Below are positions 10,969 to 40,354 of a DNA stretch of 55,202 bases, piece after piece. Under the pieces are notes generated by a model. That model searched no databases. It was given only the letters and a program-made list of their open reading frames with translations, and had not been told where the DNA came from. The DNA is from Candidatus Coprovivens sp. (GTDB lineage Bacteria; Bacillota_I; Bacilli_A; RF39; UBA660). Positions within the stretch are counted from its first letter, which is position 1; every line of letters starts with the position of its first letter. The translations under genes and the position numbers were made by a program. The DNA lies in the NCBI GenBank assembly GCA_051892935.1, contig JBJFGS010000014.1, positions 25,982 through 81,183 of the forward strand. The letters are read 5' to 3'.

Positions 10969-13353
10969 CTAATCTTTCCATTCTGTACGTTGATCAAGTA
11001 ACTGATCATATGATATAAATCCACCAAAATAGGTATCAGAAGTATCATAAGAACCATTACTATTTACAACATAATATCCATTTGCATCAGAATCATAAAC
11101 CAAATATTTTCCACTATCTCCACCAGAAATAGTATTATCATAAGTATCCCAAGGTTTATCATAAGTAATTTCTTGACCAGGAGCTAAATATATAACATCA
11201 GGTTTTTCAGCAGTTCCTGAATACAATGCACCTCTATCTATTGAATCTAGTGTCGCTCTATTACTATTTAAATAGTTCGTATCATAAGTAACATACGAGG
11301 TGCCAACATTATTTTTATTTACATTATCAGTAAAAGAAGTATTTATTTCTGTTCCCACAGAAGTATAAGGAGATGTACCATTATTAAAAGTTTCATTCCA
11401 TTGAACATCCAAATTTTGTCTATAACTATTAACGAAATCAGTTCTAGAAACAATATCACCATTAGAGTAATTAGTATATGGAACCAAATTACCATTTTCA
11501 TCTAAAACATGAACTTGAGCATTTGGGTCAGTGGATAAAGTATAATATCTTTTTCCATCATGTCCCATCAAGAAATAGGCATTTTTTCCATTGATATTAA
11601 CTGCTTGTCCTGAAGAAACTGTAACTCTTTCAGCAGTTGTTTCTGCAGTTGGAGCACTAGTTGGAGCCTCAGTTGGAGCTTCAGTTGGAGCCTCAGTTGG
11701 AGCTTCAGTTGGAGCTTCAGTTGGAGCTTCAGTTGGAGCTTCGGTTGGAGCTTCGGTTGGAGCTTCGGTTGGAGCTTCGGTTGGAGCTTCAGTAGGAGTT
11801 TCACCAGTAGTTCCACCATCTTGAGTACCTTCATCTTTCAACGAACCATCATCGTTAAATGTTCCAGGATTATCAATTGGCTTACCATCTTTGTCTTCAT
11901 ATTTTACATTGCCATCAGGTGTAACAGTAGCTTTATTACCATTTTTATCAGTACTTACAACTTCTGTCACAGCACCATTTGCATTACGTTTTGTTTCAAC
12001 AGAAGTAGTATTTCCCTCAGCATCCTCAGTAGTAACTTTATGAGTAGAGCCACTAGAATTAACCGTTGTTTCAGTAGTAGTTGAACCTGTTTTAGTACCA
12101 CTTTCATCGTAAGTAGAAGTAGTTGAAGTAGTTTTATCTCCGTTAACCTCAGTTACAGTTTCTTGACTACCAGTTACATTACCATCATTGTCAGTAGTAG
12201 TTACAGTAACCGTTGTTGTAGAACCAACAACATTTCCCTCAGCATCTGTAATATCCTCAACTTGACGAGTAGTAACTTCTGTTGCAGTAGTAACATTTCC
12301 AGCACCATCATCAGTAGTAATAGTTTTAACAATAGAATTATAACCAGTAACATTACCAGCTGCATCCACAACAGGTACACTATATTCATAAGATTCAGTA
12401 GTAGTTACACCATTTTCAACTGTAGTAACACTTTCAACCAATCCATTATCATTATACTTAGTTTCTTGAGAATAAGTAACAACGCCATTTTCTTTAGTTT
12501 CAACTTTAACAAGATTTCCATTGCTATCATAAGTATTTTCCGTTGAAGATTTAACATTACCAGCTGCATCTTTAACTACAGTAGAAACAAGTCTTCCATT
12601 TTCATCATAAGTATTATTAGTAATAGTAGTAACTCCACCTACAACAGATGTAATAGCAACAATACGTCCAAAATCATCAAACTCAGTAGTAGTTTTTTCA
12701 AGAACATTTTTACCCTCAGCATCATATTTTTCAACAACTAACTGACCATCATCAGTATAATATGATTTTTCAATACCAATTACATTGCCATTAGCATCCA
12801 ATGTTTTAACTATATAATTACCATCTACATCGAAATAAGAAATGGTCTTATTGCCCTTACCATCATCTCCTACAATAGCATTGTCATCATTAAGGTCCTC
12901 ACGTAGAGCATAACCTGTCGCATAATTAACACCATTAGCAGTAGCAGAAATAGTTAGTGCATTATCACTAATCTTTCTATTATTATAAATATCGCTAGCT
13001 ACATTGGTAAAATCAGAATTCTTGGCAGTTATTACTGCTATAGCAGCAGACCACTTTTCAAAATTAGCATTAAATTCATGAAAAGTAGATGCATTTTCTT
13101 TCCATAGGTTTATCAATAAATTACCATGTTCACCGAAAACACAATGTTCACAGCTAACATTAACATCAGAAATAACTCGATCATTTGCTTGTTTTAAAAT
13201 ATCGGCAAAATCATCAAAACTACCCTGTAATGTAGTTATATTAGCTTTAAGTCCCTCTAAATTAAAAACTCTCTCTTCATTAGCAGAATCGAATTCTCTC
13301 TTTTCATATTTTATATCACTATCACCAGTAGGTGTATCAGCAACGCTTGCCAT
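10969..13353 (-). CDS. WXG100-like 'B' domain fused to YD/RHS-like repeats, a (TEAP)n stalk and a C-terminal domain
   Basis: N-terminal FGEHGNLLINLW matches IGGKVGNLLFKEW of the 140 aa protein; YDENGRL, YDSNGNL and YNDNGL repeats; TEAP x11. Confidence 0.7.
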   Translation of the reverse strand: MASVADTPTGDSDIKYEKREFDSANEERVFNLEGLKANITTLQGSFDDFADILKQANDRVISDVNVSCEHCVFGEHGNLLINLWKENASTFHEFNANFEKWSAAIAVITAKNSDFTNVASDIYNNRKISDNALTISATANGVNYATGYALREDLNDDNAIVGDDGKGNKTISYFDVDGNYIVKTLDANGNVIGIEKSYYTDDGQLVVEKYDAEGKNVLEKTTTEFDDFGRIVAITSVVGGVTTITNNTYDENGRLVSTVVKDAAGNVKSSTENTYDSNGNLVKVETKENGVVTYSQETKYNDNGLVESVTTVENGVTTTESYEYSVPVVDAAGNVTGYNSIVKTITTDDGAGNVTTATEVTTRQVEDITDAEGNVVGSTTTVTVTTTDNDGNVTGSQETVTEVNGDKTTSTTSTYDESGTKTGSTTTETTVNSSGSTHKVTTEDAEGNTTSVETKRNANGAVTEVVSTDKNGNKATVTPDGNVKYEDKDGKPIDNPGTFNDDGSLKDEGTQDGGTTGETPTEAPTEAPTEAPTEAPTEAPTEAPTEAPTEAPTEAPTEAPTEAPTSAPTAETTAERVTVSSGQAVNINGKNAYFLMGHDGKRYYTLSTDPNAQVHVLDENGNLVPYTNYSNGDIVSRTDFVNSYRQNLDVQWNETFNNGTSPYTSVGTEINTSFTDNVNKNNVGTSYVTYDTNYLNSNRATLDSIDRGALYSGTAEKPDVIYLAPGQEITYDKPWDTYDNTISGGDSGKYLVYDSDANGYYVVNSNGSYDTSDTYFGGFISYDQLLDQRTEWKD
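11651..11794. repeat. 12-bp coding tandem repeat encoding (TEAP)11 plus TSAP
   Basis: GGAGC(T/C)TC(A/G)GTT x11 plus one degenerate copy. Confidence 0.95.
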
Positions 13354-13365
13354 AAAAATACCTCC

Positions 13366-13674
13366 TTATCCTATTGCAGCGAAAGCAGCATTAACTTCAC
13401 TTTCAAGTGTTGAATAATAACTTCCGCCAGTTTGCCCTTCTAGAATTTCTGCATAAGCTTTTAATATTAAAACCAAAGTATCCAAAGAAGATTTAAATCC
13501 TAAACATTCATTCCAAAAAGTTGTATAACTTTCATCATACCAATTTTCCTTAATACCATTTATATTGCTGTATATTTCAGCAATTTTAGCTTCAACTTTA
13601 CTAGCATAACCTTTTAAATCCCCGGCTAAAGCCACTAGTTTTTCACTATCAGCAGCAAAATCATACATATTCAT
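13366..13674 (-). CDS. WXG100 family protein ('A' type, WxD variant)
   Basis: About 100 aa helix-turn-helix with NWYDESY at the WXG position; shares YDF..D..KL and LKAY with 22699-23004; true start may be ATG 13668. Confidence 0.8.
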   Translation of the reverse strand: MNMYDFAADSEKLVALAGDLKGYASKVEAKIAEIYSNINGIKENWYDESYTTFWNECLGFKSSLDTLVLILKAYAEILEGQTGGSYYSTLESEVNAAFAAIG

Positions 13675-13766
13675 CCCTCCTGTACTTCAAGTACATTATA
13701 AATAAAAGATTTCCATCTTTTACTTATAATATACTGCGTGTTAACGCAGTACATAAATTTAAGAAA

Positions 13767-14078
13767 TTAACCTCTTTGAGAGTAAATTCCTTGAGTAGTT
13801 GACTCAGCAGCTGTACTTCTTTTAGCGATAGTTTCAGCTCTGTTCATAAATGAATTAACATTTGTTTTTAAATTTTGATATGCTGTTTCATTTTCTGCTT
13901 CGAATGTTTGTAAAGCAAGTGCACCAAGTGAACCAGCCATTGCAGATCCAGCTCCACTTAATTGACCTGTTACTCTTTCACGTTCAGAATTAAATGCAGA
14001 ACATGATTCTTCGATTGATTGAGCAGCTTTTTTTAAAGCAGCAGTAGCAGCTTCGGCGTTAAAGTTTTCTGTTGCCAT
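13767..14078 (-). CDS. WXG100-like protein ('B' type)
   Basis: 103 aa helical hairpin with central AMAGSLG; FN start motif shared with other B proteins. Confidence 0.7.
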   Translation of the reverse strand: MATENFNAEAATAALKKAAQSIEESCSAFNSERERVTGQLSGAGSAMAGSLGALALQTFEAENETAYQNLKTNVNSFMNRAETIAKRSTAAESTTQGIYSQRG

Positions 14079-14125
14079 ATAATCAGTCCTTTCTGTATTG
14101 TATTTTTATTAATTAATATCATTAA

Positions 14126-14434
14126 TTACATTGTTGCTGTTTTAACGTTATCAGCACTATTTGAAGCCATTTCATCTTCTACCATTTGATTTTGGTTAAT
14201 AAAATGGTCAGCAGTAGCTAGATATTCTTCAGCAGGTTTAACAACTTCATTTTCGAATGTTACAAGTAATGCTTCAGCAGTAGTACCACTCATACCTGTA
14301 GCCAACAATTCATCTCTTAATGTTGCTTTAGTATTTTCAAAAGATTCAGATTGTTTATTTCTTGAAGTTTGTAAATCACTAATAGCTGTTTGGAATTCAC
14401 TTTGTTTATATCTAAAGTTGTCCATATTTGACAT
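14126..14434 (-). CDS. WXG100-like protein (MSG at the WXG position)
   Basis: 102 aa helical hairpin with central GMSGTTAEA; immediately downstream of esaB. Confidence 0.7.
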   Translation of the reverse strand: MSNMDNFRYKQSEFQTAISDLQTSRNKQSESFENTKATLRDELLATGMSGTTAEALLVTFENEVVKPAEEYLATADHFINQNQMVEDEMASNSADNVKTATM

Positions 14435-14445: not shown

Positions 14446-14703
14446 CTATAATAGTATTAGTTTTGTACCATTTAAAATGTTGTTTTCCAAAAATGTATTA
14501 TCAACATTATAAACAGTACCATCTTCAGCATTTATTAATGATAAATGTTCACTCATGGCGTACGCACCATCTGTCATATCATTAATAGCTTTATTTAATA
14601 AGAATATAATTTCAATAGTCTTCTTATTAACAGGAATAAAAACATTGTATCTTTCTTCAATGCCAGGTACAATCAAATCTACACAGACTTTATTATGATT
14701 CAT
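14446..14703 (-). CDS. esaB: EsaB/YukD-like ubiquitin-fold T7SS protein
   Basis: 85 aa; YNVFIP...I..LL...TFLENNILNGTKLILL pattern; adjacent to essC. Confidence 0.75.
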   Translation of the reverse strand: MNHNKVCVDLIVPGIEERYNVFIPVNKKTIEIIFLLNKAINDMTDGAYAMSEHLSLINAEDGTVYNVDNTFLENNILNGTKLILL

Positions 14704-14842: not shown

Positions 14843-14875
14843 AATAAAAAAGACAATAAAATCGTCTTTTTTATT
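14843..14875 (-). terminator. Intrinsic terminator after essC
   Basis: AAAAAAGAC..GTCTTTTTT hairpin. Confidence 0.7.
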
Positions 14876-17800
14876 AAAGCGTTTCATACACTTCCTCTTC
14901 ACCCAATTCAGAAATATATTTAACAAGAACTGTCGTATTTCCATCCACATAATATCCAAAATTCTTATCAAGTTTAGCACCTAATATTCTAGAAGATAAT
15001 GTAGATTTTAAGGTGTATTGAGTACTTATTCCGTTACCAATCCAAATACCTTTGGTACCAGAAATAGTATCTTTATACCAGCTATCAAATTCACGTTTCT
15101 TAAAGTTATCGCAAGTATCAATTAGTACAAAATGCATCTTAGGCATAGATTTAACCATTGAAACAAGCCCACTGTAAGCTCCATCAAATTCACTACCTAA
15201 AACATTTTTAAACTTTTCAAGTCCAACTATAAAACATACATACTCGCCTTGTTCTTTTAAAACTCCAGCATCAAAACCGGCATCTTTATACTTATTAAAT
15301 GAATCAAAAACAAACTTACCAAAAGATTTAAAAGATTCCAAAATATTAGTATCATGATAAGTAACATAAGATTCATAATCTTTATATATTTTCTCTAAAT
15401 CAAATACATAACAATTCTTTCCTATAATGTTTGAAACTTCTTTAATGAATAATCCACCAAATGTTTTTATGTCATTAAGTTCCATACCAGTAATAATATG
15501 TACAAGGTTCTTAGTAAAATCAAGAGTTCTTACTCTTAGAGATTCTTTTTCAATTCCAACAGGAACAGCTTCTAAACCTTTTATATTATCAGCTAAATCA
15601 GCAACAGTAACAACTTCTGGTAATACAGGAACTTTTGGAGCACTATTTGGAAACTTAGTAGTCAACTCTTTTATTTTTTCCATAACAACAGTATTTAAAG
15701 TTTCTTTTTCAGCTGGTACAGCTGCTTGGAATTCATAAACAGCATCAAGTTTTACCAAACCTCTACCACTTATATCAGCAGGCTCAAGTTTAGTTCTAGC
15801 AAGTAATGAACTATAATCATACTTATCATTCATTTGGAATACTAAATGATTAGGTAAATATTGAGCTAATCTAGATCTGATACCATTTGATGTAGTAGAA
15901 GTCATTACAAAGTAAACACCATATTTTTGACAATCACGTGTAATTGTCGCTAGTAAATCAAATGTAGCATCTCCATAGTTTTCATTATACAATTCAAAAC
16001 CATTTATAATTACTAATATATTTGGTAAAACCTTACCAGTAGCTTTTGAATAAGATATATAATCTCCACCATAGTCAGCAAACATTTTCTTTCTACCTGC
16101 AATCTTTTCAGATAACATTCTCCATAAATTAGTTACTTTATCAGAATCATTTTGTAAAATAACATCTCCAACTTGAGGAGCTTTTCTATATATTTTTAAT
16201 GTTTCTGCACCAAAATCCAATAGATACATATTTAACTCCATAGGAGTATATGTAGTAATACAAGAATATACTAATGAATTAATCATTTCTTCTTTACCAC
16301 TATCTGCCATACCATAAATAATCCAGTTACCACCTTGGGTAATAGGCAATGTAAGCAATCCTTGTTTTTGCAAGTTTGGTGCATCATATTCACCAATAAC
16401 AGGATTAATATCACAATCAATTTTTCTAAAACTATATTTTTCTTTCAAACCATCAATAAAAATAATTGGTGCCAAAGAATTAAGCCATAATTGTTTAATA
16501 GTAATACTTTCTTTTTTAGCTATTTCAACTAAATATTTCATTATATTAGGTAATTCTTCACCTTTTAAAACACCAGTAAAGTTTTGTTTTCCATCATCAA
16601 CTATCTTAAAAGGCATTCCTAAATTATCAACAAAGGTTATTGTATTATCAACTTTTTTCTTTCTAACATCCGATTCATAATATGGCGCACCTGTCCAAGC
16701 AGATTGACCTAATGCAAAGTATTCATCATAACCAACTTGTAAATAGAATCTACCTGTTTCTTTAATAGAAGCAGCATCTGGTCTTTTAATCATTTCTTGA
16801 CTATCCGAACGATCTTGTACCTTTAAACAAACTTTAAACTTAGAGTTTGCCCAAATTTGATCATTAACTACACCACTAGGCTTTTGTGTTGCTAAAATCA
16901 AGTGAACTCCTAAAGAACGACCAATACGTGAAGCAGAAATAAGCTCGTTCATAAAATCAGGTTGTTGTGCTTTTAATTCAGCAAACTCATCTGAAATAAT
17001 AAACAAATGAGCAACTGGTTTATCAACCTGACCACTTCTATATAGTCGTTGATATTTATATATATCAATAGTAGATTCACCAACTTTATCTCTAGCTTTA
17101 TTAAATACAGCTTGTCTTCTTTTTAACTCAGATTGCAAAGAAGCTAATGAACGATTAATTTCTGAAACATCTAAGTTCGTAATTGTACCTGCCAAATGAG
17201 GTAATTTTAAACCAGTTTCTCTGTTTTCAAAAGCACCAGCTAGCCCTCCACCTTTATAGTCAATTAAAACAAATTGAACTTCATAAGGATGATAATTTAA
17301 AGCTAAGCTTAAAATGAAAGTAATAATAAATTCTGATTTACCTGAACCAGTCATACCAGCAACTAAACCATGAGGTCCATGAGCCTTTTCATGTAAATCT
17401 AATTTAAACAAATCACCATACTCATTAATACCAATAGGTGCCGCAAGAGTATTAATTGGATCACTTTCTTTCCAACGTGCTAATGCATTTAATTGGTTAA
17501 CATTTGAAACATTATACATTTCCAAAAAAGAATATGTAGAAGGTAATTGAAACTTACCACCATTTAAAGCAATAGGAATATTAGATACAACATAAGCATA
17601 TTTTTCTAATGAACCATACATAAAATCAGGAACGAAATTAATTCTCTTACTATCAGTAAGCACTCTTTCAAATACTCCACCAGTTCTTTCATCAACACTA
17701 ATAAAATGTTCTACTTCATTTGGTAAAGAGTTTAATTTTTCAGTAAATATTAATAAACTAATACCAACATATTCTTCTGACTCAATCAATGAACGAATTA

Positions 17801-19541
17801 AACTAACATTTCTTACTAAGTCAATATCATCAGTAATAACCAAATATCTAGTAGGTAATTTAGCACTCTCTTTATTACTAGAAGCACCTCTTTCTTGATT
17901 AGCTTCCCTTATTGCACTTAACATTTCTTCAAAATAAGAACTAATTTGATTGATTTCATCACTATTAGTACCAAAAAATCTTAAAGTTCTTTCATCATTC
18001 CAAAAATATGGACAATCTTTTATATCTTCCCAAAACTTTTCTTGTTCCCTATTAGTAAAAACACATACCTTTAATGAGTCATATCCATGATAAGCAAAAA
18101 TTTGTAATAACAAACCTCTTAAAAACGGATTAGTAACATTTTTATTACCTATGACAGCAGTAATATACTTATTAACAAAAGAATAAGTAACAGGAACGTT
18201 TTCAAGCATACTAGTTTCTTTTTCAAGTTCTCTTAAATATCCCATCAAATTATCTTCATCATCCATTGAAAAGTGTTCATCCGGATAATTAATTGTAAAA
18301 AATGGTGGTATCGCACCAATACCTAATCTTAAAGATAAAAAATCATAATCACTAATATTCTTTTCCCATAAATTACGTTTTTTATAAAGAATAATATCAC
18401 CAACATCTTTTAACGGAATATACTTATCAATTAAAATTTGTTGTTCCTTTTTCATTTCTGTTAAAAACTCTTCACGTTTTTTATTAACATACATACTATA
18501 AGTGGCTTGTCTTTTTCTTTCATAAATTCTTTTTTTATGTTTAGTATACATCTTACTTAAAGTAGGTAATACTAACATACATGTCAACATTGCCCCGGCA
18601 GTAAGTAAAGAAGGCCATGCATCAGATAATTTTTGATTACCATTTAATACATTTGTCAATGTTATGACTCCTGTCATAACAGAACTCATACCCATCATCA
18701 TCATAGAACCCATTGTAAAAATTGCTGGCATTTCATCTTGATTTTGAGCAGATGGTGGTGGATCTATAACCAATACTTTTTCCTCTATTTTTTCATCAAA
18801 ACGTGGTGGCTTCAAAAAATAGTCTTCTTTTTTATACATTTCAATAACAGCATCAGGTTCATTTGATATTTTAGAATAATCTAAAGTAGGAATTTGCCTT
18901 AATGAAAACACTTGAGAATCAAATTTAACTAATTTATTAGGATTATTAACATAAAAAATATCATTAATAATAGTTAACTTAAATCCAAGCATAAAAATAT
19001 TATCACCATTTTTTAAATCAGCACTATCACAAGGAATTCCATTAATATACATCGGTAAAGCTGTATTTAAATTATATACAGAATATCTTCCTGAATTATA
19101 AGCAATTTTTAATTGATTTCTTGCAATACCAGGCTGTTCATATGAAATAATATTTGGATAATTAGACGCATTATCTTGTGAACCATTGTTACCAATATAC
19201 CATGCCGAAGAATTCTCCATATTATTAAAATTCATTCTAAGTTGTAAAGAGTTTTCATCATATACCGGACAGGTATAAATCACATAACTTTGACCCAATA
19301 AAATATTCTTTAAAGTATAAAATTTTTCATTTTCAATCAAGGCTTCATCTACTGCAGTACCATTTCTAAAAACCTTAACCTCACTATTACTTTTCAATAC
19401 CCAATTATTATCTATAGCTTGAACACCAACTAAATTTTCTTTATCAGCATTAACAATCCAATAATTACCAAATATTTCATTAGGAAGTATCAAATTAACA
19501 AGTTTAGTAGCATCCATTAACATAATTTTCATACCGGCCAC
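14874..19541 (-). CDS. essC: Type VII secretion ATPase EssC (FHA-like N-terminus, 2 TM, FtsK/SpoIIIE domains)
   Basis: [59 protein letters not shown] and YLLDFG motifs; second and third ATPase domains degenerate. Confidence 0.96.
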   Translation of the reverse strand: [1555 protein letters not shown]

Positions 19542-19634: not shown

Positions 19635-22046
19635 CTATTTCTCAGAAGTACTATTATATTGCTCACCATATATTATTTCTTCCGCAGATTGAAACTCCTT
19701 TGGCTCAGAAACTTTTTCTTGTTCATCTTTTACATCTTCAACAATTATTTCTTCACTTATTATTGTAGCATCATCAGGAGGAGTTATTTCATTACCATTT
19801 TCATCAACATATACTATTTCTTCTTGATATATAACATTTTCTTCTGAATCAGTTGGAGAAGTAGTTTCTTCCAACTTTTCTTTTTTATCTTCTTTATTAA
19901 TTTTTTCTATTATAATTAATGATTCTAATTTTCTTCGTTCTTTTCCTTTTTTTATTCTAAACGTTGTATAAAATAGAATAATCGCCAAAACTAATAGAAC
20001 AAAAATAAGAATACTAATAACATCGAATAATTTCAAGGCCAAAGTAAAAGCAAATACACTGACTGAAACACCAGTAGCTACTTTAACTTCTTTCTCATTT
20101 TTAGCGATTAATTCAGCGTATGAAGAATCACCTAATATTCCACCAGGAGCATCTACTCCTAATTGTTTATCCATATCTTCTACTCTTAATTGTTCTTGTT
20201 TTTCTACATCGATATCTGTTCCTCTAGATTTAGCATTAGCAGGAGCACCATTATTAGAACTTCCTTTTCCTAAAGTATCAGATTTCATAGTTGAAGACTC
20301 TGTTGAATGTGTAGAAGTAGCAACATTAGAATTACTTGCAGAAGCACTATTAGTACTATTACCTGAACTTGAAATAAAGCCAGAATTTGTTGCAGAAGAA
20401 GAATAACCACCAGAAGAACCTCCACTTTGCGAAATAGTAGACATCGAACTTCCATAATCAACCGCTGGAGCTGAAGAGCCCAAATTAGGAACAGAAGCAC
20501 TAGATATTGGAACATCAGGCGTAGAAATACTACCATTGTTACCACCAAGAATAACAGAAGCACCCAAGCCCGCAGCACCTACAATAGCACTACTACTCTT
20601 CAATTCGTCACTATCTAACTTAGGAAGTTCAATTTTACTATCTCCACTACTTTCAGATTTTAAAGTAGGATTATTCTTCTTGATTATAGGAACATCTGGC
20701 AACTTAGAAGGCTTATCATCAACACTAACTACTGAATCATTATTCTCTTCACTTATTTCAACCTTTTCATTAGGTTCATCATTTATTTCTTTATTAACAT
20801 CTTGACTAGGTGAATCTTGTTGCGGCTGATTAGCAGAAGATGTTTGATTATTTTGTTGTGTCTGTTTAGAAGAAGATGTCTGATTATTTTGTTGCGTTTG
20901 ATTATTTTGTTGTGGTTTTTCTTGTTTTCCCGAAGGAGGATTCGATTTTTCATTCTGCGAATCGTTTGGAACACTAGGCTTAGCTTTATTATTTACAGCC
21001 ACATCAGCAACATCATTAGCACCATTTTTAGCACTATCAGCTATAGAAGATCCAATATCAAATTTTCCTTTTTCATCATCATGTCCAGATTCATCATCTT
21101 TTTTATCAGCATTTTTATCTAAAACAAGCTTAGTAACACCTGCAACAGCACTACTAAATGATAAAATAGAATCTTCTAATTTACCCAAAGAAGCATCAAC
21201 CCAGCTTCCATCATCTTCTTTATTTCCCAAAATATCTCTGTACTTAGATTCTCCCTGAAATGGTAATATACCATCCTCCCAAATTTTACCTGAAGAAGAA
21301 AAAATATCATCTTTAAATTTTTCTTCACATTCTTCTTTCAAAATTTGTCCAAAAGGAGTACTAAACAATGAAGACAATTGTACCGATAATAAATCGCCAA
21401 CTTTTATTCCATCAACAATAATATCTCCATTATCATCTATTCGATCAGACAATCTATCAAAGAAATAAGTCATAAAGTCAGACACAGTCACATTTTCTCT
21501 TTCGCTATCACGATTAGATAAATTAGCAAGACTCGTCCAAACTTTTAAACTATTATAAGAATCATCTCTATATAAAGAACTAGAATCATCCAATAAAGAA
21601 TCACCAAATAATCCATCACCCTTTAATGAAGACAAAGTACTAGCTGAACCATATTTATCCAAAAAAGAAAAAACACCATTAGAAACTCCAGCTTCACTTT
21701 CAATAGATACATCATTTTGATTTTCAAATTGTTCAATCAATTTAGTAATACTTTTTAATGCCGATATTACCTTAGATATACTATTTGAAACACTAGAACT
21801 AATATCATTAACCTTTTTATAAGCGCTATCTGCTTCACTATTATATATTCTAGCCTTAGAAGTAAAATCAGCTATAAGTTCATTTTCTTCGTCAAAAACC
21901 TTTAGGAAACTACTATTAAGATTCACTTTATTATTAGCAAAATATGTAGCCATACCACTTAATGTAGAATCGATATCTTTTCTAATATTAGTTAAATTAT
22001 CTACTGCGCTTTGAGCTAATTCCTTATCAAATTTTACATATGCCAT
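19635..22046 (-). CDS. Large putative T7SS substrate, cassette 2 (helical N-terminus, S/Q/N-rich spacer, C-terminal TM hairpin, acidic tail)
   Basis: 803 aa, no signal peptide; MAYVKFD...ATYF N-terminus; two TM helices near the C-terminus. Confidence 0.65.
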   Translation of the reverse strand: MAYVKFDKELAQSAVDNLTNIRKDIDSTLSGMATYFANNKVNLNSSFLKVFDEENELIADFTSKARIYNSEADSAYKKVNDISSSVSNSISKVISALKSITKLIEQFENQNDVSIESEAGVSNGVFSFLDKYGSASTLSSLKGDGLFGDSLLDDSSSLYRDDSYNSLKVWTSLANLSNRDSERENVTVSDFMTYFFDRLSDRIDDNGDIIVDGIKVGDLLSVQLSSLFSTPFGQILKEECEEKFKDDIFSSSGKIWEDGILPFQGESKYRDILGNKEDDGSWVDASLGKLEDSILSFSSAVAGVTKLVLDKNADKKDDESGHDDEKGKFDIGSSIADSAKNGANDVADVAVNNKAKPSVPNDSQNEKSNPPSGKQEKPQQNNQTQQNNQTSSSKQTQQNNQTSSANQPQQDSPSQDVNKEINDEPNEKVEISEENNDSVVSVDDKPSKLPDVPIIKKNNPTLKSESSGDSKIELPKLDSDELKSSSAIVGAAGLGASVILGGNNGSISTPDVPISSASVPNLGSSAPAVDYGSSMSTISQSGGSSGGYSSSATNSGFISSSGNSTNSASASNSNVATSTHSTESSTMKSDTLGKGSSNNGAPANAKSRGTDIDVEKQEQLRVEDMDKQLGVDAPGGILGDSSYAELIAKNEKEVKVATGVSVSVFAFTLALKLFDVISILIFVLLVLAIILFYTTFRIKKGKERRKLESLIIIEKINKEDKKEKLEETTSPTDSEENVIYQEEIVYVDENGNEITPPDDATIISEEIIVEDVKDEQEKVSEPKEFQSAEEIIYGEQYNSTSEK

Positions 22047-22052: not shown

Positions 22053-22271
22053 TCAACTCCAAAACTTTTTTTGTGCATTCATATTTGAAACATTTTTTTC
22101 TAAATCTGCTATTCCATTATTCAATTCGTTCACAGCTTTATTAATTTCTCTTTTTAAATTATCAATAGAATTATTATCATCATCTAATAATGCTGAAGTT
22201 AAATAATTAGTTTGAGAAGATAATTCAGAACTCAAATCTTTTAAATTTTCTATTTTTTTACTTAAATTCAT
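22053..22271 (-). CDS. Small helical-hairpin protein, cassette 2
   Basis: 72 aa, overlaps the upstream stop by 4 nt; amphipathic helices. Confidence 0.6.
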   Translation of the reverse strand: MNLSKKIENLKDLSSELSSQTNYLTSALLDDDNNSIDNLKREINKAVNELNNGIADLEKNVSNMNAQKKFWS

Positions 22272-22690
22272 AATAACTCAGCTCCCCTATGATCATTTTC
22301 GCTATTTTTACCCTTTAAACTATCATTTAAAGGAACAGCATTATCAAAAGTTGGTGATTTATAAACTCTTTCTATTGTTTCAGCAGTTTCAGAAGAACGA
22401 TTATAAATACTTCTCATCGTTTCACTTGTATCGCTAAAAAACCTTGAATAATTCAATAGAGGAACACAATTGTCCATCCACTCTTTAAAAAGAAGATTAC
22501 CCACTTTTCCTCCGATTGCTCCAGATGATGTTTGTATATTTTCAGCAACTAAAGAATCCATAGATGAAATAGATTCAAAAACTTCTTTGCCTAATAAATC
22601 AAACTCATCTATCATTTTCATAACTTCAGTTGCATTAAAAGTTTCTATAACTTCAATAGTACGAGGACTATTTTCATTACCAATTGCCAT
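22268..22690 (-). CDS. WXG100-like protein ('B' type)
   Basis: FNATEV...GAIGGKVGNLLFKEW; paralogous to the other B proteins. Confidence 0.7.
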   Translation of the reverse strand: MAIGNENSPRTIEVIETFNATEVMKMIDEFDLLGKEVFESISSMDSLVAENIQTSSGAIGGKVGNLLFKEWMDNCVPLLNYSRFFSDTSETMRSIYNRSSETAETIERVYKSPTFDNAVPLNDSLKGKNSENDHRGAELL

Positions 22691-24892: not shown

Positions 24893-24895
24893 TTT

Positions 24896-25126: not shown

Positions 25127-25147
25127 TACATCAACTCCCCTAATAAA

Positions 25148-25345: not shown

Positions 25346-25352
25346 TAACTAA

Positions 25353-26485: not shown

Positions 26486-28776
26486 TATCTTCTACCATTC
26501 TTAATAGCGTCTTCACATGATAAGATTAATCTCATACCTAATTCATCACCAGAAATCTCACTAAGCTGTGAATAGCTTCCTACTTCATTGTACACTTCGC
26601 CAAAACCATACATTTTTTTAGCTTGCTTAATAATATAATTCAAATAACTATCACTCTTAGTTTGTACAAACTTTTCTCTCATTATCTGATCAACACTCTT
26701 ACTATTATGTCTAATATACTTAGTAATTGCTGAAGCATCTCTCGTTGTAACTATTCCTGGAGGAACATCAAGACCTTCTGCTTTAGCATAACCATCACAT
26801 ATTTTCCTGAAATTTACAAATAACTCATACCAAGATTCATATTCACCAAATATTCTTTGTTCAACTCTATTATCATAATTTATTTTTTTAGGAGTCATTC
26901 TTTCTTGAACAGATTCATCCATTTTACCACGTGATGAAAAGATAGCATTTTCTCCTTCACCAGAAGTATTACCAGCACTTATCATTCTAAAATTAGGATG
27001 AATTGGTACTGTCATATCTTCCGCAAATGTAACAAATCTTTGTCTATCTGGCTTTTCTAATACATCAAGTAAACCTGAATATAACTCATTTAATACTACT
27101 TGAGTATCAGGATTACCATTATCAAATTCATCTAATAATAGCATTTTCCCATAAGTTAGAGCAACAAAAGCCTGTGTAGCTCTAAAATTACCATGTGGAT
27201 CATTATATGCCATAATACTATACTTATCAGTAATCTTTCCATTATCTATTAATTCTATTCCTAATAAAGAAGCAACCTGTTTAACCAAATATGACTTACC
27301 ACATCCAGAAGGTCCCCACAAATAAGGCCAATCTCCTTCCATAAGACAAATAATTATCTCTTCAGTCATCTCATGGAATATTTCACCATTTTCTTCTCTT
27401 CTTCTTTTTTCTAATAATACTTTTTCAAGCCTAACATCAAATGGAATAGATTCATCAAAAGCAGGTAATATTACAATATTTTCAACTTTCTCTGGTACAA
27501 CAACATTAGGATTAGCTGGAATAACCAATCTATCATGTCCAGGTATTAAGATTCCTGTTTGAGCATTTCCTACTACAGCTCCACTCATTGCTCCTGCATT
27601 TAAAGAACTAAATTGCAATAAAGCTTCTCTAATAGAACTATCATTACTAGCTTTTTGTAATAATTCTTGTAATTTAGGTTCATTTTCAACATAATTTTTA
27701 AGTCTATCAACACTATCTGCTGAAGCTTGTTGAATTCTAATTAATTCAGAAGTAGTTGCATTAGTTAGCCCCTCAGCAGCTACCCTAATCTGTCTAATTT
27801 TTTCTTGGGCATCTAGAAGAATTTGATTAAATACTTTATCACTGCTTTGTTTTAAAGTAAGTTCTAAAGAAATTAAATATTCATCCAATTGTTTAAGTAA
27901 TTCTGTCTTAGCTTCATTAACAGATTCCTGCATTTTATTAATCGATTCTAATGAATAATCACCAATCTCTTTTTTACTAGATACAACTAAATCTCTAATA
28001 TCTTTTCTTCCACTATTAACTAATGAATCAATTGTATCTTTAAATTTATCAATCTTTTTTTGCATTACTTCTAATTTAACAATCAAAGACTGAGCTTTTT
28101 CTGCTTCTGCTGAAATAAGAGCCAAAGTTTTCTCATCAACTGGGAAAATACCTACACGCTTCCTTGCATCGCTTATTCTTTGTTTAAAATAATCATCAGC
28201 TGAACCAACAACACCTTTTAATCCATTAATACAAGAAACGACTTCACATCTTAACATAGTTTGATTAGGTATATAAGGAGCTACTTCTATAACAAAATTA
28301 AATATATCTCTATATGAACAAGGTAAATTATCATAAGAAGAAATTAAATCTATAATAAACAAATAATCATATCTTGAACTAAAAACAGAATACAAATTTT
28401 TATCAAACAAACCTTTTTTTATCAAACTATTATTACCAATTAATTTATTAATAACCATATTTTTAATATTCTGATAATCTTCTGTTTCCATTCCCTCTGG
28501 TAATAAAAATTTAACTATTTCTCCTAGTTCATCAAAAATTGATTTAAATTCTACATAATCTTCAAAATGTGTATCCAATAATTCCAATAATACTTTTTCT
28601 AAAAAATCATATTCATAAAAATCATTATTTATTTCTTTATCTCTAATTTTTTCTACATAATCAACTAGATATTGTATTGTTTCCAAATCAATTTTTTGGG
28701 CTGATTTAATAACTCTTATTAAATTTCTATATTTTTTTTCTTCTTCAGTTTCATTAAAAAATCCCATTTTACTCAC
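26485..28776 (-). CDS. MoxR/CobS-like AAA+ ATPase with long N-terminal helical/coiled-coil region
   Basis: Walker A GPSGCGKS, Walker B LLLDEFD, sensor IHPNFRMISAGNT, MDESVQER. Confidence 0.85.
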   Translation of the reverse strand: MSKMGFFNETEEEKKYRNLIRVIKSAQKIDLETIQYLVDYVEKIRDKEINNDFYEYDFLEKVLLELLDTHFEDYVEFKSIFDELGEIVKFLLPEGMETEDYQNIKNMVINKLIGNNSLIKKGLFDKNLYSVFSSRYDYLFIIDLISSYDNLPCSYRDIFNFVIEVAPYIPNQTMLRCEVVSCINGLKGVVGSADDYFKQRISDARKRVGIFPVDEKTLALISAEAEKAQSLIVKLEVMQKKIDKFKDTIDSLVNSGRKDIRDLVVSSKKEIGDYSLESINKMQESVNEAKTELLKQLDEYLISLELTLKQSSDKVFNQILLDAQEKIRQIRVAAEGLTNATTSELIRIQQASADSVDRLKNYVENEPKLQELLQKASNDSSIREALLQFSSLNAGAMSGAVVGNAQTGILIPGHDRLVIPANPNVVVPEKVENIVILPAFDESIPFDVRLEKVLLEKRRREENGEIFHEMTEEIIICLMEGDWPYLWGPSGCGKSYLVKQVASLLGIELIDNGKITDKYSIMAYNDPHGNFRATQAFVALTYGKMLLLDEFDNGNPDTQVVLNELYSGLLDVLEKPDRQRFVTFAEDMTVPIHPNFRMISAGNTSGEGENAIFSSRGKMDESVQERMTPKKINYDNRVEQRIFGEYESWYELFVNFRKICDGYAKAEGLDVPPGIVTTRDASAITKYIRHNSKSVDQIMREKFVQTKSDSYLNYIIKQAKKMYGFGEVYNEVGSYSQLSEISGDELGMRLILSCEDAIKNGRR

Positions 28777-35355: not shown

Positions 35356-37476
35356 TTAATTAAAGAACTTTTTATCATTATTATCTTTAGTTAATTTAGA
35401 ATCATCACTATAACCATTTTTTATTTGGTCAATTATTTTTTTCTTAACATCTTCTTCATTATTAACTATAGGTTTAGAATTAAATTTTAAATTGCAATAA
35501 TCATATATATTCAAACCTTTTTTACGTTCTTGCTCATTTTGTTCTTCTAATTTAGCAATACCAAAATAATTATAAGCAAAATATCCAGCTATTATCAAAA
35601 CAACAAGTATTAAATTAAGAATCCAATGTGTAATATCAAAAACACTTAACAATCCTACAAAACCAATTGCAACTATTCCAACAACAGCTGGAACATAATC
35701 AAACATTGGCAATATTCTTTCAAACAACTTAGTAAAGTAATAATATAAGAACACAACTACTAAAACGGCAAACGCAATTACATAAGACAAAGTAGGAGCC
35801 ACATCTAAACAAGTTAATAAATATATTAAGAATTGATTAACTAATAAAGCACATACTGTATAGAACTTACCAAGTTTTACTCCCATAGTAGTAATAACAG
35901 CTGTTATAGCAATTGATAAACCAATTAATACAATAGTTACATTAGTAGTAATATTTAATATTGAAGCTATTGAATTAGCAATTATTAAAATAGTTAATAA
36001 AACCATTGAAATAATAGTACCAATCCTTCTCTTTTTATATTGCTCAGGAGTTAAAGAAGAATCATCATCATATTCATAATCATATACTCTTACTCCATCA
36101 TTTATTTCATCCTTAGTGCGTTTCATAGTTGCAGCAGCATTTGCTGCAGCAGCACCAACAGCAGCCATTCCTCCAATTGCCAAACTAGCTGATGAAACAT
36201 TTTTATCTAAATCTAAATCTAAAGAATCAACAGCATTTTCTTTATCAGGACCATCCAACATTCCAAGGAATGCATCTTCAGCCATCTTAAATTTTTGTGA
36301 ATTAATAGCATCAGCAAATGTACCATCTAAGAATGGATAAATAACATTTCCATTTTCATCGTAATACATAATATTACCATCTTCATCAACCATCATTTTA
36401 CCCTTTTTCAACAATTCATTTATGAAATCGATATCAGAACTATTAGTACCATATTCGTAACCAGGAATAACATTTTTATCTGGTTTTCCATCGCCATCAG
36501 TATCAACATTAATATCTGGAATACCATCTCCATTTAAATCAATATTAATATCAGCATATCCATTTCCATCAGAATCAATATTTAAATCTGGTTTTCCATC
36601 GCCATTTGTATCTATATTAATATCAGGAATACCATCTCCATTTGTATCCACATTTAAATCTGGTTTTCCATCGCCATTTGTATCTATATTAACATCTGGA
36701 ATACCATCTCCATTTGTATCAATATTTAAATCTGGTTTTCCATCGCCATTTGTGTCTATATTAACATCTGGAATCAAATCGCCATTTGTGTCAATATTTA
36801 AATCTGGTTTTCCATCGCCATCAGTATCTATATTAACATCAGGAATTTTATCGCCATTTGTATCAATATTTAAATCAGCTACGCCATCACCATCAGTATC
36901 AACATCAACTTTTGGAGATTCAGTTGGAGTTGTATCACTAGTATCATCACCAGTACCATCGCCATCTCTAACAGTTGGATCTTCAACATCAATTCCAGAA
37001 CCATCTCCAATTCCCAAACCACTACCAACTCCAGCTAAATCAACAGGGACTTCTGGAGGAACATCCAATCCTCCAACAATAGCATCATAATCTGGAGGAG
37101 CTGATGGTAAAGATTCATAATTTAAAACTGCAGCTTCAATATTTTTAACTTTCGTATCAACAGATGTTACATTAGAATTAATAACCTCCGATGCAGCACG
37201 CATTCTTTGAAGATTAGTTCTAGCATTAATTAAACTGTTACCATAATTATTCATATAATAACTATAATTTTCGTTTGTTAAAGATTCTATTTCGTTTCCA
37301 TAATCATCAGTCTCTATAGACATTTTTCTTACTTTAGCTTGTACTTCTTCCGCAGTAGGCAAATTCCTATAATAAGTAGCTAAAGAAGATGTAGCAGAAG
37401 ATATCTTTGTTTCAGCTGTTTCTAATTTTGATATAATATCACTACAAACAGAACCATCAAATTTCAATTTAGACAT
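35356..37476 (-). CDS. Large putative T7SS substrate, cassette 3 (helical N-terminus, 12 Ca-binding-like repeats, 6 TM C-terminus)
   Basis: 706 aa, no signal peptide; MSKLKFD...ATYY N-terminus; DTNGDGKPDLNI repeats; six hydrophobic helices. Confidence 0.7.
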   Translation of the reverse strand: MSKLKFDGSVCSDIISKLETAETKISSATSSLATYYRNLPTAEEVQAKVRKMSIETDDYGNEIESLTNENYSYYMNNYGNSLINARTNLQRMRAASEVINSNVTSVDTKVKNIEAAVLNYESLPSAPPDYDAIVGGLDVPPEVPVDLAGVGSGLGIGDGSGIDVEDPTVRDGDGTGDDTSDTTPTESPKVDVDTDGDGVADLNIDTNGDKIPDVNIDTDGDGKPDLNIDTNGDLIPDVNIDTNGDGKPDLNIDTNGDGIPDVNIDTNGDGKPDLNVDTNGDGIPDINIDTNGDGKPDLNIDSDGNGYADINIDLNGDGIPDINVDTDGDGKPDKNVIPGYEYGTNSSDIDFINELLKKGKMMVDEDGNIMYYDENGNVIYPFLDGTFADAINSQKFKMAEDAFLGMLDGPDKENAVDSLDLDLDKNVSSASLAIGGMAAVGAAAANAAATMKRTKDEINDGVRVYDYEYDDDSSLTPEQYKKRRIGTIISMVLLTILIIANSIASILNITTNVTIVLIGLSIAITAVITTMGVKLGKFYTVCALLVNQFLIYLLTCLDVAPTLSYVIAFAVLVVVFLYYYFTKLFERILPMFDYVPAVVGIVAIGFVGLLSVFDITHWILNLILVVLIIAGYFAYNYFGIAKLEEQNEQERKKGLNIYDYCNLKFNSKPIVNNEEDVKKKIIDQIKNGYSDDSKLTKDNNDKKFFN
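36469..36900. repeat. 36-bp coding repeat x12 (Dx(D/N)GDG Ca-binding-like)
   Basis: 12 units of D(T/S/L)(N/D)G(D/N)x(K/I)PD(L/V/I)N(I/V); alternating KPDL and IPDV give a 72-bp superperiod. Confidence 0.92.
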
Positions 37477-37486: not shown

Positions 37487-37726
37487 CTACAAATTTAAAA
37501 CAGCACGTTTAGCTTCTGCAACATCATGATTAGTAACAACATCTGTTCTTATTTTTTCCAATTCTGAAACCCTTTTTTTTAAAAATTCAATCATTGATTC
37601 AGTAGATGACTCATTATCATCTAATACAGCCAAGTCAGGCAACAAATCATTTATAACAGAGTTTAAACAAGTTATTGCTTCATCAATATCTTGAACAACA
37701 CTCGATATAGAATCCATGCTTATCAC
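37487..37726 (-). CDS. Small helical-hairpin protein, cassette 3
   Basis: 76-79 aa (ATG 37717 likely); precedes the large substrate. Confidence 0.6.
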   Translation of the reverse strand: MISMDSISSVVQDIDEAITCLNSVINDLLPDLAVLDDNESSTESMIEFLKKRVSELEKIRTDVVTNHDVAEAKRAVLNL

Positions 37727-37831: not shown

Positions 37832-38179
37832 TTATTTAATTACTTCTTCTACTTCATCACTTATTTTATCAATCAGTGCCGTTACTCCACTTTCAAAATC
37901 AGAAGTAGTTTTTGTAACATTTAAAACATTGGCATAATAATTATCAAATTTTTTCTTAAAATTTTCAAAAGTTAAAGCTGCACTATTCCATTTAGATAAA
38001 AAGTCGCTTCCTAATTTCGAAGATAACGCCGAATCATCACCAGCATTAAAACTTCCTTCAATTATCTTATCTAAACTATCAACCAAACTATAATAAGAAG
38101 AAAAAACACCATTTAATTCCTCCATAGTTGATTTAACTGTCTCATAAGATAAATATTCACTTGTTGAACTATTACTCAT
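37832..38179 (-). CDS. WXG100-like protein ('B' type)
   Basis: SALSSKLGSDFLSKW..AALTFENFKKKF, similar to the N-terminus of the 794 aa protein. Confidence 0.7.
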   Translation of the reverse strand: MSNSSTSEYLSYETVKSTMEELNGVFSSYYSLVDSLDKIIEGSFNAGDDSALSSKLGSDFLSKWNSAALTFENFKKKFDNYYANVLNVTKTTSDFESGVTALIDKISDEVEEVIK

Positions 38180-38189: not shown

Positions 38190-39425
38190 CTATTGTTTAG
38201 CTTCCACCGATTCTGATGCACTCGTTACAGCATCAACACTTTCAGTATTATATCCTTGTTTTAAATATTGAGAATACGTCATAAACTTTGTTTCTCCATC
38301 AGCAGTAGTTATTTTAACCGAATCAAAGCCATTATCATTTTTTACAACTCCACCATAATCACTATAAGCTTGATTCTGTGAAAAAGTAGAAGTTGAACCA
38401 AAAATGTTATTATTAATTTGTTGTCCTTCTGAAACAAATTCACTACTATTAAAAGCAACAACTCCAGGTGCTATAACTTCAGTACCACCTTGTGAATTTT
38501 CTGCAATATTATAAGCCGCTTCCATTGCTGTTTTAGAAACATTGGTACCATTAAGAAACAAATCATAACGATGATCTGTATCAGAGACAGTTCCAACTAA
38601 AGAAGAACTATCTGTAACAACAGAAACTGGTGTCAAATTTGATATTGCTGCAACAACACTTCTTAAACCATCTGTAGCTTCTTCAAGACTATCACCATAT
38701 CCAAACCAACCATCAGAAGCTTCATGTATTTTACCATCTCCACCATTTCCAGTTATTAAATCTATAATATCAAGACTAGATTCAGCTGTTAAACCATCAA
38801 CAGTATTATAAGCTTCCATATATTCTCCCAAATAACCATTAAGATCTTCAATTTTTTTATTAGCTTGATTAATCAAAGCATCATATACAGCTGGATCCAT
38901 CTTACTACGATTCGCTTCTAATGCTGCAAGTGCATCTTTCTCATTTCGAATTTCACTATTTATAAGTTCAATATCGTAATATAAATTATCACGAACTTCA
39001 ATAGCTTGCTTATAAGCATCTTTAGGAGTTTTAACATTAGAAATATCAGGAGTATAAGACAAATTACTTCCATAATAATCTCCAATATCCTCTGCTTTAT
39101 AAACACTATCACCAAGAGTTATTAAAGCACTACAATCAAGATTTGCTGCCACATCAGCAACCAATCCATTTCCTTGTTCTTCTAACTCACTTACAGTATT
39201 TGAGTACTGAGAAAATAAATCTACCAATTCCTCTAATGCCGGTTTAAAATTAGTAGCATCATTAACAAAGGCATCGTATGAAGGACCTTTCCAAGAACTA
39301 CCAAGACTAGCCACTTTTTCATATATTGTAGTATTATAACCTTCTAAAGTCGTTGATGCTGTTGATAATTTTTTCTTAATATCCTCTAATTTAGCAGAAT
39401 CCAATATAAAAAAGCCATTACTCAC
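38190..39425 (-). CDS. WXG100 'A' domain fused to a ~310-aa extension
   Basis: SSWKGPSYDAF, nearly identical to SSWSGPSYDAF of 40028-40354. Confidence 0.8.
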   Translation of the reverse strand: MSNGFFILDSAKLEDIKKKLSTASTTLEGYNTTIYEKVASLGSSWKGPSYDAFVNDATNFKPALEELVDLFSQYSNTVSELEEQGNGLVADVAANLDCSALITLGDSVYKAEDIGDYYGSNLSYTPDISNVKTPKDAYKQAIEVRDNLYYDIELINSEIRNEKDALAALEANRSKMDPAVYDALINQANKKIEDLNGYLGEYMEAYNTVDGLTAESSLDIIDLITGNGGDGKIHEASDGWFGYGDSLEEATDGLRSVVAAISNLTPVSVVTDSSSLVGTVSDTDHRYDLFLNGTNVSKTAMEAAYNIAENSQGGTEVIAPGVVAFNSSEFVSEGQQINNNIFGSTSTFSQNQAYSDYGGVVKNDNGFDSVKITTADGETKFMTYSQYLKQGYNTESVDAVTSASESVEAKQ

Positions 39426-39499
39426 AAAAAATCATCTCCTATTTTATAAAAAAACTTAATAAGTAAAAAAACTAATAAGTATTCTATTTATCTACAATA

Positions 39500-39528
39500 A
39501 TCATAAAAAAAAAAGCCCTCAAAGTCAA
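39500..39528 (-). promoter_or_regulatory. SigA-like promoter with poly(T) spacer
   Basis: TTGACT-N17-TATGAT; a T10 run ends at the first base of the -10 box. Confidence 0.65.
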
Positions 39529-39548
39529 TATAATAGATAATATTTAAT

Positions 39549-39580
39549 AAAAAAATACATCTATTAGATGTATTATTTTT
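39549..39580 (-). terminator. Intrinsic terminator
   Basis: AATACATCTA-T-TAGATGTATT hairpin plus T-run. Confidence 0.6.
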
Positions 39581-40016
39581 CAGAATAATAAACTGATGTT
39601 GAAGGACCTACAGGAGAATTATCTGGAGTTCCTACATCTTCTTCCATACCCAATTGAGCAAATAATTCTTGAACCTTATCTTCAAAAGCTTCATTTGTTT
39701 TTGTTGCCAACTGAACATTGTCTAATGTTTGAGTTATATACTTTGAGAAATTAGCAAATCTAGTAGTTAATGCATTCCATCTTGTATTAACATAATTTGA
39801 TGCTCCACCTCTCATAGCAGCACCATTAGTTCCAAAATTAGTATTAACTAACTCTGTTCCAGACTCTAAAGTTTTTAAAGCATTTGTTGTATCAGTTCCA
39901 ATTTTTGTACGACTTGCAGAAACTGCAGCAAAATCCATTCTTTCTTGAGAAGAACTTCCACCTTCTCCAGTTGCTGCTATTTCAAACATTGGATAATTTT
40001 TATATTTATTCATCAT
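39573..40016 (-). CDS. WXG100-like protein ('B' type)
   Basis: GAAMRGGASNYVNTRW..F.NF central motif. Confidence 0.7.
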   Translation of the reverse strand: MMNKYKNYPMFEIAATGEGGSSSQERMDFAAVSASRTKIGTDTTNALKTLESGTELVNTNFGTNGAAMRGGASNYVNTRWNALTTRFANFSKYITQTLDNVQLATKTNEAFEDKVQELFAQLGMEEDVGTPDNSPVGPSTSVYYSEK

Positions 40017-40027
40017 TTTTTAACCTC

Positions 40028-40354
40028 CTAATTTTCAAAATAACCTGCATTAGTAGCAGAAGTGCTTTGAGCTTCACCTGCTAATTCTTGTAATTTAGTA
40101 ACCCAATTTGAAATATTAGTAATCAATGGATCAATTGATTGTTTCTTATAATTTTCGCAATTTGTTTTAAATGCATCATAAGATGGTCCAGACCAACTAC
40201 TATTTAAAGCTGTTACATCTCCATATAAAGTTTCAACATCTGCTTTAAAAGTTTCAAGTATAGTTGATAAATCTTCTGCAGCAGTACTTATTTTAGACCA
40301 ATCATAGAATACTTCTCCATTTGCTGCTCCAGCATTTCCAGACATATTTGCCAT
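40028..40354 (-). CDS. WXG100 family protein ('A' type)
   Basis: SWSGPSY canonical WxG; ATG 40354 follows GGAGGTG; 108 aa. Confidence 0.87.
   Translation of the reverse strand: MANMSGNAGAANGEVFYDWSKISTAAEDLSTILETFKADVETLYGDVTALNSSWSGPSYDAFKTNCENYKKQSIDPLITNISNWVTKLQELAGEAQSTSATNAGYFEN

Follow-up and report, generated by a model that had tools for sequence, protein, structure and literature searches.

Five tandem pairs of small helical genes, here called A and B, occur in a 55,202-nucleotide stretch of Candidatus Coprovivens sp. DNA (GenBank assembly GCA_051892935.1, contig JBJFGS010000014.1, positions 25,982 to 81,183), which is referred to as the window and whose own numbering is used below. 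An earlier note, made from the sequence alone, had proposed that each A gene encodes a WXG100 protein of a type VII secretion system (T7SS) and is followed by a B gene for a partner of a distinct family. The pairs are real: all ten genes lie on the minus strand where the note had placed them, within the span that it claimed, and the five B motifs that it quoted are present. Two further components, which the note did not mention, are the C and D genes that follow three of the five pairs and a hairpin RNA. The last cassette reaches position 8096, beyond the interval of the note.

The first cluster has the transcription order A1-B1-A2-B2-C-D (40354-35356). Its lead pair consists of A1 (40028-40354), a WXG100 protein with a WSG centre for which a ribosome binding site and start codon are found, and B1 (39573-40016), a B-family hairpin of 147 amino acids with an MRG turn. 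A2 (38190-39425; 411 amino acids) joins a WXG100 domain with a WKG centre to about 300 amino acids of cargo, and is followed by B2 (37832-38179; 115 amino acids, LSS turn), by C (37487-37726), a helical protein of 79 amino acids, and by D (35356-37476), a protein of 706 amino acids with a helical N-terminal region, 12-amino-acid Asp/Gly repeats and C-terminal membrane segments. The Asp/Gly-rich repeats, which are possibly calcium-binding, are encoded by 36-bp units at positions 36397-36972.

The second cluster (23004-8096) has the order A3-B3-C-D-essC-esaB-like-A4-B4-A5-B5-C-D-DUF4176. The gene ahead of A3, between the two clusters, is labelled thrS, which we take it to be. A3 (22699-23004; WSG) and B3 (22268-22690; 140 amino acids, IGG turn) precede a helical C protein of 72 amino acids (22053-22271) and a D protein of 803 amino acids with a low-complexity middle and two C-terminal membrane segments (19635-22046). 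The main cassette lies on the other side of essC (14874-19541) and the esaB-like gene (14446-14703), and its lead pair is A4 (14126-14434; MSG) and B4 (13767-14078; 103 amino acids, MAG turn). A noncoding double hairpin (13662-13762) marks the junction with the second pair, composed of A5 (13366-13668; WYD) and B5 (10969-13353), the latter a protein of 794 amino acids with a B domain (VFG turn), RHS/YD-like repeats, PT repeats and a shared C-terminal domain. The PT repeats are encoded by 12-bp units at positions 11598-11825. The cassette ends with C (10721-10954; 77 amino acids, helical), D (8480-10708; 742 amino acids) and a small DUF4176 protein (8096-8458; PF13780, E 2.4e-28). The larger unit, [A-B]-hairpin RNA-[A-B]-C-D, adjoins essC and the esaB-like gene.

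The B protein family

B domains 2 to 5 are only 11-20% identical to the first, and the bare B motif is weak, its relaxed form occurring in 13 of 48 open reading frames of the window, A4 included. A profile made from four of the domains recovers the fifth at 25.1-39.5 bits (B1, 32.4; B2, 39.5; B3, 25.1; B4, 33.9), whereas 500 shuffles reach at best 5.9-10.1 bits and the non-B reading frames of the window at best 9.4. These leave-one-out profiles and shuffles rule out a chance motif as the source of the likeness. A search of 1.84 billion entries with the five-sequence profile recovers 360 clusters (50% identity; E up to 0.001). Word-based homologue searches were insensitive (22, 3 and 2 matches), and no B match was found in plasmids.

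The B consensus comprises E-x-F-[ND] near the start, S-A-[ILVM]-x-G-x-x-G at the turn (the glycines at 91% and 86%), a tryptophan (92%) and N-N-x-x-F-E. The earlier note held that B lacks WxG, and indeed none of 168 B domains has WxG at the turn; the motif is not simply missing, because [ILVMA]x[GS] occupies the same register. The A and B profiles align with the B hydrophobic-x-G on the A WxG (hhalign 41%, E 3e-4), by which B is a divergent paralogue within the WXG100 superfamily, its turn having degenerated. Of 197 B rows, some of them redundant, 44% have Asp or Glu 44 positions after the turn, as against only 2 of 27 A rows; the EsxA arm has the same spacing, from W43 to D87 (PMC13355648). 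Tyr, Ile or Phe occurs at +51 in 72%, and the first hydrophobic residue of the HxxxD/ExxhxxxH arm is replaced by Asn: among 154 arms, 76 have the form NxxxD/E and 15 the form YxxxD/E.

AlphaFold2 predicts that B2 is a helical hairpin (helices 12-44 and 55-114; predicted local distance difference test, pLDDT, 82). WXG100 proteins make up 8 of the top 10 rows of a Foldseek search with this model (template modelling score 0.66-0.69 by query), at E values that are not significant. The Lap2 structure LapD2 (7uh4) ranks among generic hairpins (Z 7.8, root mean square deviation 6.4, 99 residues aligned). For B2, the ESM Atlas returns unnamed Bacillota clusters at 0.94 and 0.91, and another at 0.91 with WXG100 on 23% of its members is a lead only. 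B profiles run against PDB sequences brought up no significant match: ESAT-6 reached only E 0.34 in one search, and another returned nothing relevant. B is predicted to be a WXG100-fold hairpin of about 105 amino acids, in which WxG has degenerated to [ILVM]xG and an export-arm-like C-terminus appears to be kept.

The earlier note asked for a comparison of B with WXG100, DUF3130/TIGR04197 and DUF5082. WXG100 models (PF06013 and TIGR03930) recognize none of the five B proteins of the window above cut-off; matches occur in 2 of 70 family members (best E 0.058) and in none of 96 long B proteins at E 0.001. The LXG model (PF04740) matches 2 of 70 members (best E 0.0079), and the B domain has a length of about 105 amino acids, though its hydrophobic-x-G is present. 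Hidden Markov models (HMMs) of Lap1-4 (DUF3130, DUF3958, DUF5344 and DUF5082) find none of the five window proteins or the 96 long ones, and no such model matches two or more members among 70 sequences (best 25 of 96 families) or among 55 (best 25 of 46 families), so that a weak match in one member may exist. The Lap1 motifs DxxTxxxGN and FxxxD (PMC9600955) occur in 0 of 168 and 3 of 154 B domains, and assignment of B to Lap1/DUF3130 is ruled out on motifs and HMMs. Judged by HMM and motif, B is outside WXG100, LXG and Lap1-4, and appears to be a genuine family that has no Pfam or NCBIfam model. Together with the absence of Lap1 motifs and the tight linkage to A, this bears out the suggestion of a distinct, possibly unnamed family.

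Length exceeds 200 amino acids in 96 of the best 150 of the 360 clusters, and the other 54 are short. A comparison of 110 C-termini gives 47 groups. Pfam domains among the 96 long proteins include glucosaminidase (four), phosphodiester glycosidase, S9 esterase and RHS repeats (two each), and M23 peptidase, C39 peptidase and NlpC/P60 (one each, the last at E 5e-5). A hydropathy scan found no membrane segments in these 96 proteins. Most B proteins are probably cargo-bearing substrates, beyond any role as partners.

A proteins and their linkage to B

Of the five A proteins for which the earlier note listed centres, only A1-A3 have WxG. Among 27 A rows, Trp and Gly are each conserved at the turn in 88%. 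A2 exceeds the WXG100 cut-off (PF06013, 35.9 bits), A1 (E 2.8e-5) and A5 (E 1.5e-4) fall below it, A3 is weak (E 0.056) and is recognized by the A profile, and A4 has no match. A4 also contains no tryptophan and conforms to the relaxed B-type motif. Its profile scores are ambiguous: the B profile gives E 0.02, and an A profile whose training left A4 out gives E 0.067. A4 groups with two orthologues on the A side of the tree, and so appears to be a divergent A-side hairpin; it is not a WxG protein.

A2 and B5 are long fusions. Homologues of the A2 cargo form the C-terminal parts of five proteins with a B domain (E 2.5e-10 to 2e-7), so one cargo domain is found on either partner. Three A proteins of related loci (L008, 9033-9995; L010, 9326-9961 and 14751-15845) have a C-terminal WXG100 domain, the reverse order, as in TslA-type substrates.

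Related loci were collected by a genome scan with an alignment of 24 sequences from a B subclade, which yielded 10 loci (L001-L010) with 10-kb flanks. All come from uncultured Bacilli or Tenericutes, and two are named Ca. Coprovivens, a genus placed in the order RF39 (PMC8035907). The ThrS protein of the window is 92% identical to that of one of these loci. Over the window and loci, three A and two B labels were assigned by position, and two C genes were taken out of the A label. In the 10 loci, a B gene directly follows an A gene in 24 of 28 cases, with two more one gene away and two without A, and each of the 26 A genes has a B gene within two genes. The median intergenic gap is 18 nucleotides from A to B (n = 29) and 98.5 nucleotides from B to A (n = 14; p 1.5e-6). 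No solo A gene occurs among the 26 of the loci and the five of the window.

B genes without an A lie in L002 (5631-6827) and L001 (10001-11983); the former has a tail of the phosphodiester-glycosidase type and is sited away from essC. In L007 (18681-19031) and L009 (17223-17588), related-looking genes of 116-121 amino acids stand between a long A and its B. These have no Pfam match and are possible immunity genes.

A tree of 54 rows splits A from B (97/97). Over 27 pairs, A and B distances correlate with a Mantel r of 0.80, which exceeds all 5000 free and within-locus shuffles (within-locus maximum, 0.71). The complex of A5 with residues 18-130 of B5 was modelled with an interaction score (ipSAE) of 0.78, compared with 0.00 for the best of three controls, a set without non-cognate A/B or B:B pairs. 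The ipSAE mark applied is reached by 116 of 157 solved pairs and by 2 of 215 mismatched pairs. Model runs share at least 69% of contacts, and partner pLDDT is at least 65. Residue 42 of A5, near the W turn, is predicted to contact residues 34-35 at the start of the N-terminal helix of B5, in head-to-tail style. The earlier note's proposal of heterodimer-based export in a Firmicute is partly supported: the heterodimer is modelled, and its export would follow by analogy.

Secretion genes and the spacer RNA

EssC (1555 amino acids) passes the T7SSb model TIGR03928 (966.5 bits; cut-off, 778.4), and its best PDB match is B. subtilis YukB (E 2.4e-126); its FHA match is weak (E 0.017). The next protein, of 85 amino acids, is probably EsaB/YukD-like by its size, its position and sub-threshold ubiquitin-like matches; it is 65-87% identical in nine loci and has no PDB match. 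No candidates for essA, essB or esaA were found between thrS and DUF4176 in the window or in nine loci, whose reading frames were only partly scanned with Pfam. Kinase, phosphatase, FHA, Ig-repeat, DUF5050 and Tad genes were not found beside essC, and the window shows no Ecc or MycP genes.

Nine of the 10 loci share essC and the 85-amino-acid gene, along with C, D and either one or two A-B pairs, and DUF4176 is visible in the seven loci that extend far enough. The slot 3' of the esaB-like gene holds an exchangeable lead pair of at least four divergent types across the window and L001-L010, several with a W-less A, and the type in L008 and L010 is that of A1-B1 in the window. Thioester-domain surface proteins lie between thrS and essC in L003 (2369-3559) and L006 (2203-3744), at the site where the window holds A3-B3-C-D.

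The A-B-C-D order occurs three times in the window and also in nine loci. C proteins have 70-90 amino acids and form a positional family in 15 cassettes. By hhalign, C matches the A profile at 76% and the D N-terminus matches it at 69%; the C protein after B3 also has a weak TIGR03930 match (E 0.017). A B-like nature of D was not supported by profile comparison, in which its N-terminus matches B at only 3%. For D of the main cassette, AlphaFold2 predicts a long helical hairpin with a beta insertion (helix 8-43, strands 54-77, helix 87-146; mean pLDDT 67), and this protein has a conserved middle domain and, as is often the case, a Gly-rich hydrophobic helix; the other two D proteins of the window end in membrane segments. 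Fold searches with the model return generic hairpins only, Pfam finds no LXG match in D, and an ESM Atlas search with residues 1-340 was uninformative (best, 0.78). C and D may be additional helical partners or substrates; they would either represent a degenerate third pair or complete a rod like that of EsxB/C/D and EsaD.

The double hairpin fills the spacer in 12 of 14 B-to-A junctions, namely that of the window and 11 in L001 and L003-L010. It is absent from the B1-A2 junction of the window and from one junction of 14 nucleotides. Folding z-scores are -5.9 to -8.5 in all eight spacers tested (-6.8 in the window), and two other spacers gave 0.1 and -2.0. When the structure, drawn from the window row, is applied to the alignment of these related sequences, 97.3% of cells are paired and 16 of 25 pairs show compensatory change, a level reached in 0 of 500 shuffles. 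The element has an AU-rich stem of about 20 bp, and a repeated short motif in it permits alternative pairings beside the ribosome-binding site. Rfam models assign nothing to the hairpin in the window; their only matches there are a T-box and an isrG that overlies the PT repeat and is spurious. A model of the hairpin, searched over 228 kb, finds only the 12 training spacers, their reverse strands and one match at E 0.31. A scan for promoters and terminators was uninformative and did not score the hairpin as a terminator. It resembles the esxA-esaA intergenic terminator of S. aureus in being a structured spacer of 80-100 nucleotides after the housekeeping WXG100 gene or genes, and there the spacer goes with esxA mRNA about 100-fold higher (PMC4285178). 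In contrast, the RF39 spacer is a double hairpin between two substrate pairs, and the two are likened by structure and position.

Proposed export of A-B pairs and competing explanations

With a probability of roughly two in three, A:B heterodimers are the export handle of an RF39 T7SS, carrying cargo on either chain through EssC. The A and B hairpins would pack head-to-tail to form a bundle of four helices, where A gives the WxG turn and B the adjoining C-terminal acidic arm of a bipartite signal read by EssC; this split of the signal is suggested by work on EsxA, CFP-10 and Lap proteins. Cargo would be fused to either subunit, mainly to the C-terminus of B, and would be polymorphic. The cargo-free lead pair 3' of esaB probably fills the housekeeping role of EsxA, and the hairpin after it probably holds its mRNA above that of the downstream substrates, as for esxA in S. 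aureus (PMC4285178). Wall hydrolases and esterases dominate the recognizable cargoes, which makes a role in antagonism between bacteria or in remodelling of the wall likely. For RF39 bacteria a thin wall is predicted (PMC10868615), which means that hydrolase cargo could attack either rivals or the wall of the cell that makes it.

Several observations weigh against this explanation. The loci were chosen with a B query. Among 28 B genes, two have no nearby A and two are parted from A by another gene. Close kin inflate the correlation of A and B distances, which in any case reflects joint duplication and not contact. Because WXG100 dimers have already been solved, the score of the A5:B5 model may reflect likeness to them. 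The best Foldseek E value for B2 is only 0.15, and VIA-align gives WXG100 proteins Z scores of 8-9, tied with unrelated hairpins. Asp or Glu at +44 is present in only two of the five B proteins of the window, Pfam recognizes nothing in most of the 96 long B proteins, and the analysis identified no immunity gene.

Among the closest known arrangements is that of T7SSa EsxA/EsxB (ESAT-6/CFP-10), in which bicistronic tandem hairpin genes occur as repeated pairs, one subunit bearing WxG and its partner an acidic arm (PMC3935865, PMC13355648). The RF39 pairs differ in a B turn that has no W, in the preference for NxxxD/E over YxxxD/E, in large cargo on either subunit, and in a T7SSb-type EssC with no Ecc or MycP genes in the window. 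T7SSe and T7SSg, as described in PMC11217815, likewise have a non-identical EsxA pair, a ubiquitin-like TsxB and a TsxC ATPase, with no EssA, EssB or EsaA in the cluster. In contrast to them, no kinase, phosphatase, FHA, Ig-repeat, DUF5050 or Tad genes were found beside essC in RF39 loci, the ATPase passes the EssC model, and there are several pairs and not one. The contrast that the earlier note drew between actinobacterial heterodimers and Firmicute homodimers is outdated in view of these pairs and of S. aureus EsxB-EsxD (PMC10653861). With WxG-less Laps also known in Bacillota (PMC9600955), a Firmicute that exports heterodimers would not be without precedent. The comparison draws in addition on PMC10765036, PMC13492133, PMC11322744 and PMC12478183.

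The main rival, at odds clearly longer than those of the export-handle model, casts D as a divergent LXG-like effector that A, B and C would serve as Lap-type targeting factors, in the way that EsxB, EsxC and EsxD serve EsaD. The A:B dimer would then be a sub-part of a four-chain rod, and the system an ordinary T7SSb with its remaining core genes in other parts of the genome. The recurrence of A-B-C-D, the helical hairpin of about 146 amino acids and Gly-rich hydrophobic helix of D, its DUF4176 neighbour and the passing of the T7SSb model by EssC all fit this arrangement. In S. aureus, one WXG and two WXG-less helical proteins are likewise encoded before a large protein, and EsxB and EsxD interact and are modelled as an antiparallel heterodimer within the EsaD rod (PMC10653861). 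Laps, like B, are WxG-less hairpins of about 100 amino acids with a DUF4176 neighbour. They have an export arm, which B appears to share, and the NKxxDD arm of LapA3 resembles the NxxxE of B (PMC10801868). However, no C or D belongs to the lead A-B pairs, which the hairpin sets off, B carries large polymorphic cargo unlike described Laps, and D has no LXG match. Differences from the known systems are that no Lap HMM match was seen for B, that it has almost none of the Lap1 motifs, that its partner is a WXG100 protein and not an LXG domain, and that no EsaE-like or immunity gene is recognized. The two explanations fit together for the second pair, and targeting of D may hold for that pair alone.

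Alternately, B might be a short trafficking domain of polymorphic toxins, LXG- or PPE-like, with A as a PE- or Lap-like chaperone and no housekeeping heterodimer equivalent to EsxA/EsxB. The [ILVM]xG turn resembles LxG, and the many long B proteins with their 47 groups of tails are what such a family would contain. We consider this unlikely: 54 of 150 clusters are short, lead pairs are cargo-free, cargo also occurs on A and at either end, and the B domain has about 105 amino acids versus about 190 for LXG (PMC11217815). The proposal is also largely another label for the same dimer. That A and B are merely tandem-duplicated paralogues that each homodimerize is very improbable, for despite their homology, the homodimers of Firmicute EsxA proteins (PMC13355648) and the two B genes without A, the order A-then-B is fixed, gaps are short, motifs are complementary, divergence is correlated and the model is a heterodimer.

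A more far-reaching proposal can be made, tentatively and with the odds somewhat against it. RF39 may run a stripped-down T7SS consisting of EssC and the EsaB-like protein only, with no EssA, EssB or EsaA and no homodimeric EsxA. Every substrate would be a WXG100/B heterodimer, or a C/D derivative, able to take polymorphic cargo at either terminus of either subunit; membrane-anchored D might replace the missing envelope components, and the hairpin RNA would set the ratio of housekeeping to cargo pairs.

The locus probably represents an undescribed RF39 subtype of T7SS, which would vary a familiar secretion route and not be a wholly new one. Literature searches, with most subscription papers outside their reach, brought up no account of an RF39 T7SS or of the B family among the results listed. 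What is new is the B family, the repetition of pairs that bear cargo on a T7SSb-type ATPase lacking its usual neighbours, and the spacer RNA; the advance is one of diversity and architecture, and the underlying mechanism is already known. An unnamed trafficking-domain family of at least 360 clusters is added, and because standard WXG100, LXG and Lap models miss it, the polymorphic effector repertoire of a common uncultured gut lineage is invisible to annotation. T7SSa-like paired substrates are here placed on a T7SSb-like ATPase. The system offers a natural test of a bipartite T7SS signal whose WxG and acidic-arm halves would sit on separate subunits, and also of the ability of a minimal EssC-EsaB machine to function.

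Other features of the window lie outside the cassettes, all on the minus strand where a strand is given. Between the two clusters, positions 25397-28776 encode an AAA ATPase (763 amino acids) and then a DUF7192 protein, and a similar pair stands ahead of thrS in L005. A T-box leader is found 5' of thrS (25167-25349; 75 bits, below the gathering score). It is overlapped by a reading frame of 138 amino acids (24896-25312), of which a version of about 78 amino acids is kept in related loci. Finally, positions 2360-4273 encode an unannotated coiled-coil protein of 637 amino acids with a C-terminal metallophosphoesterase-like domain.

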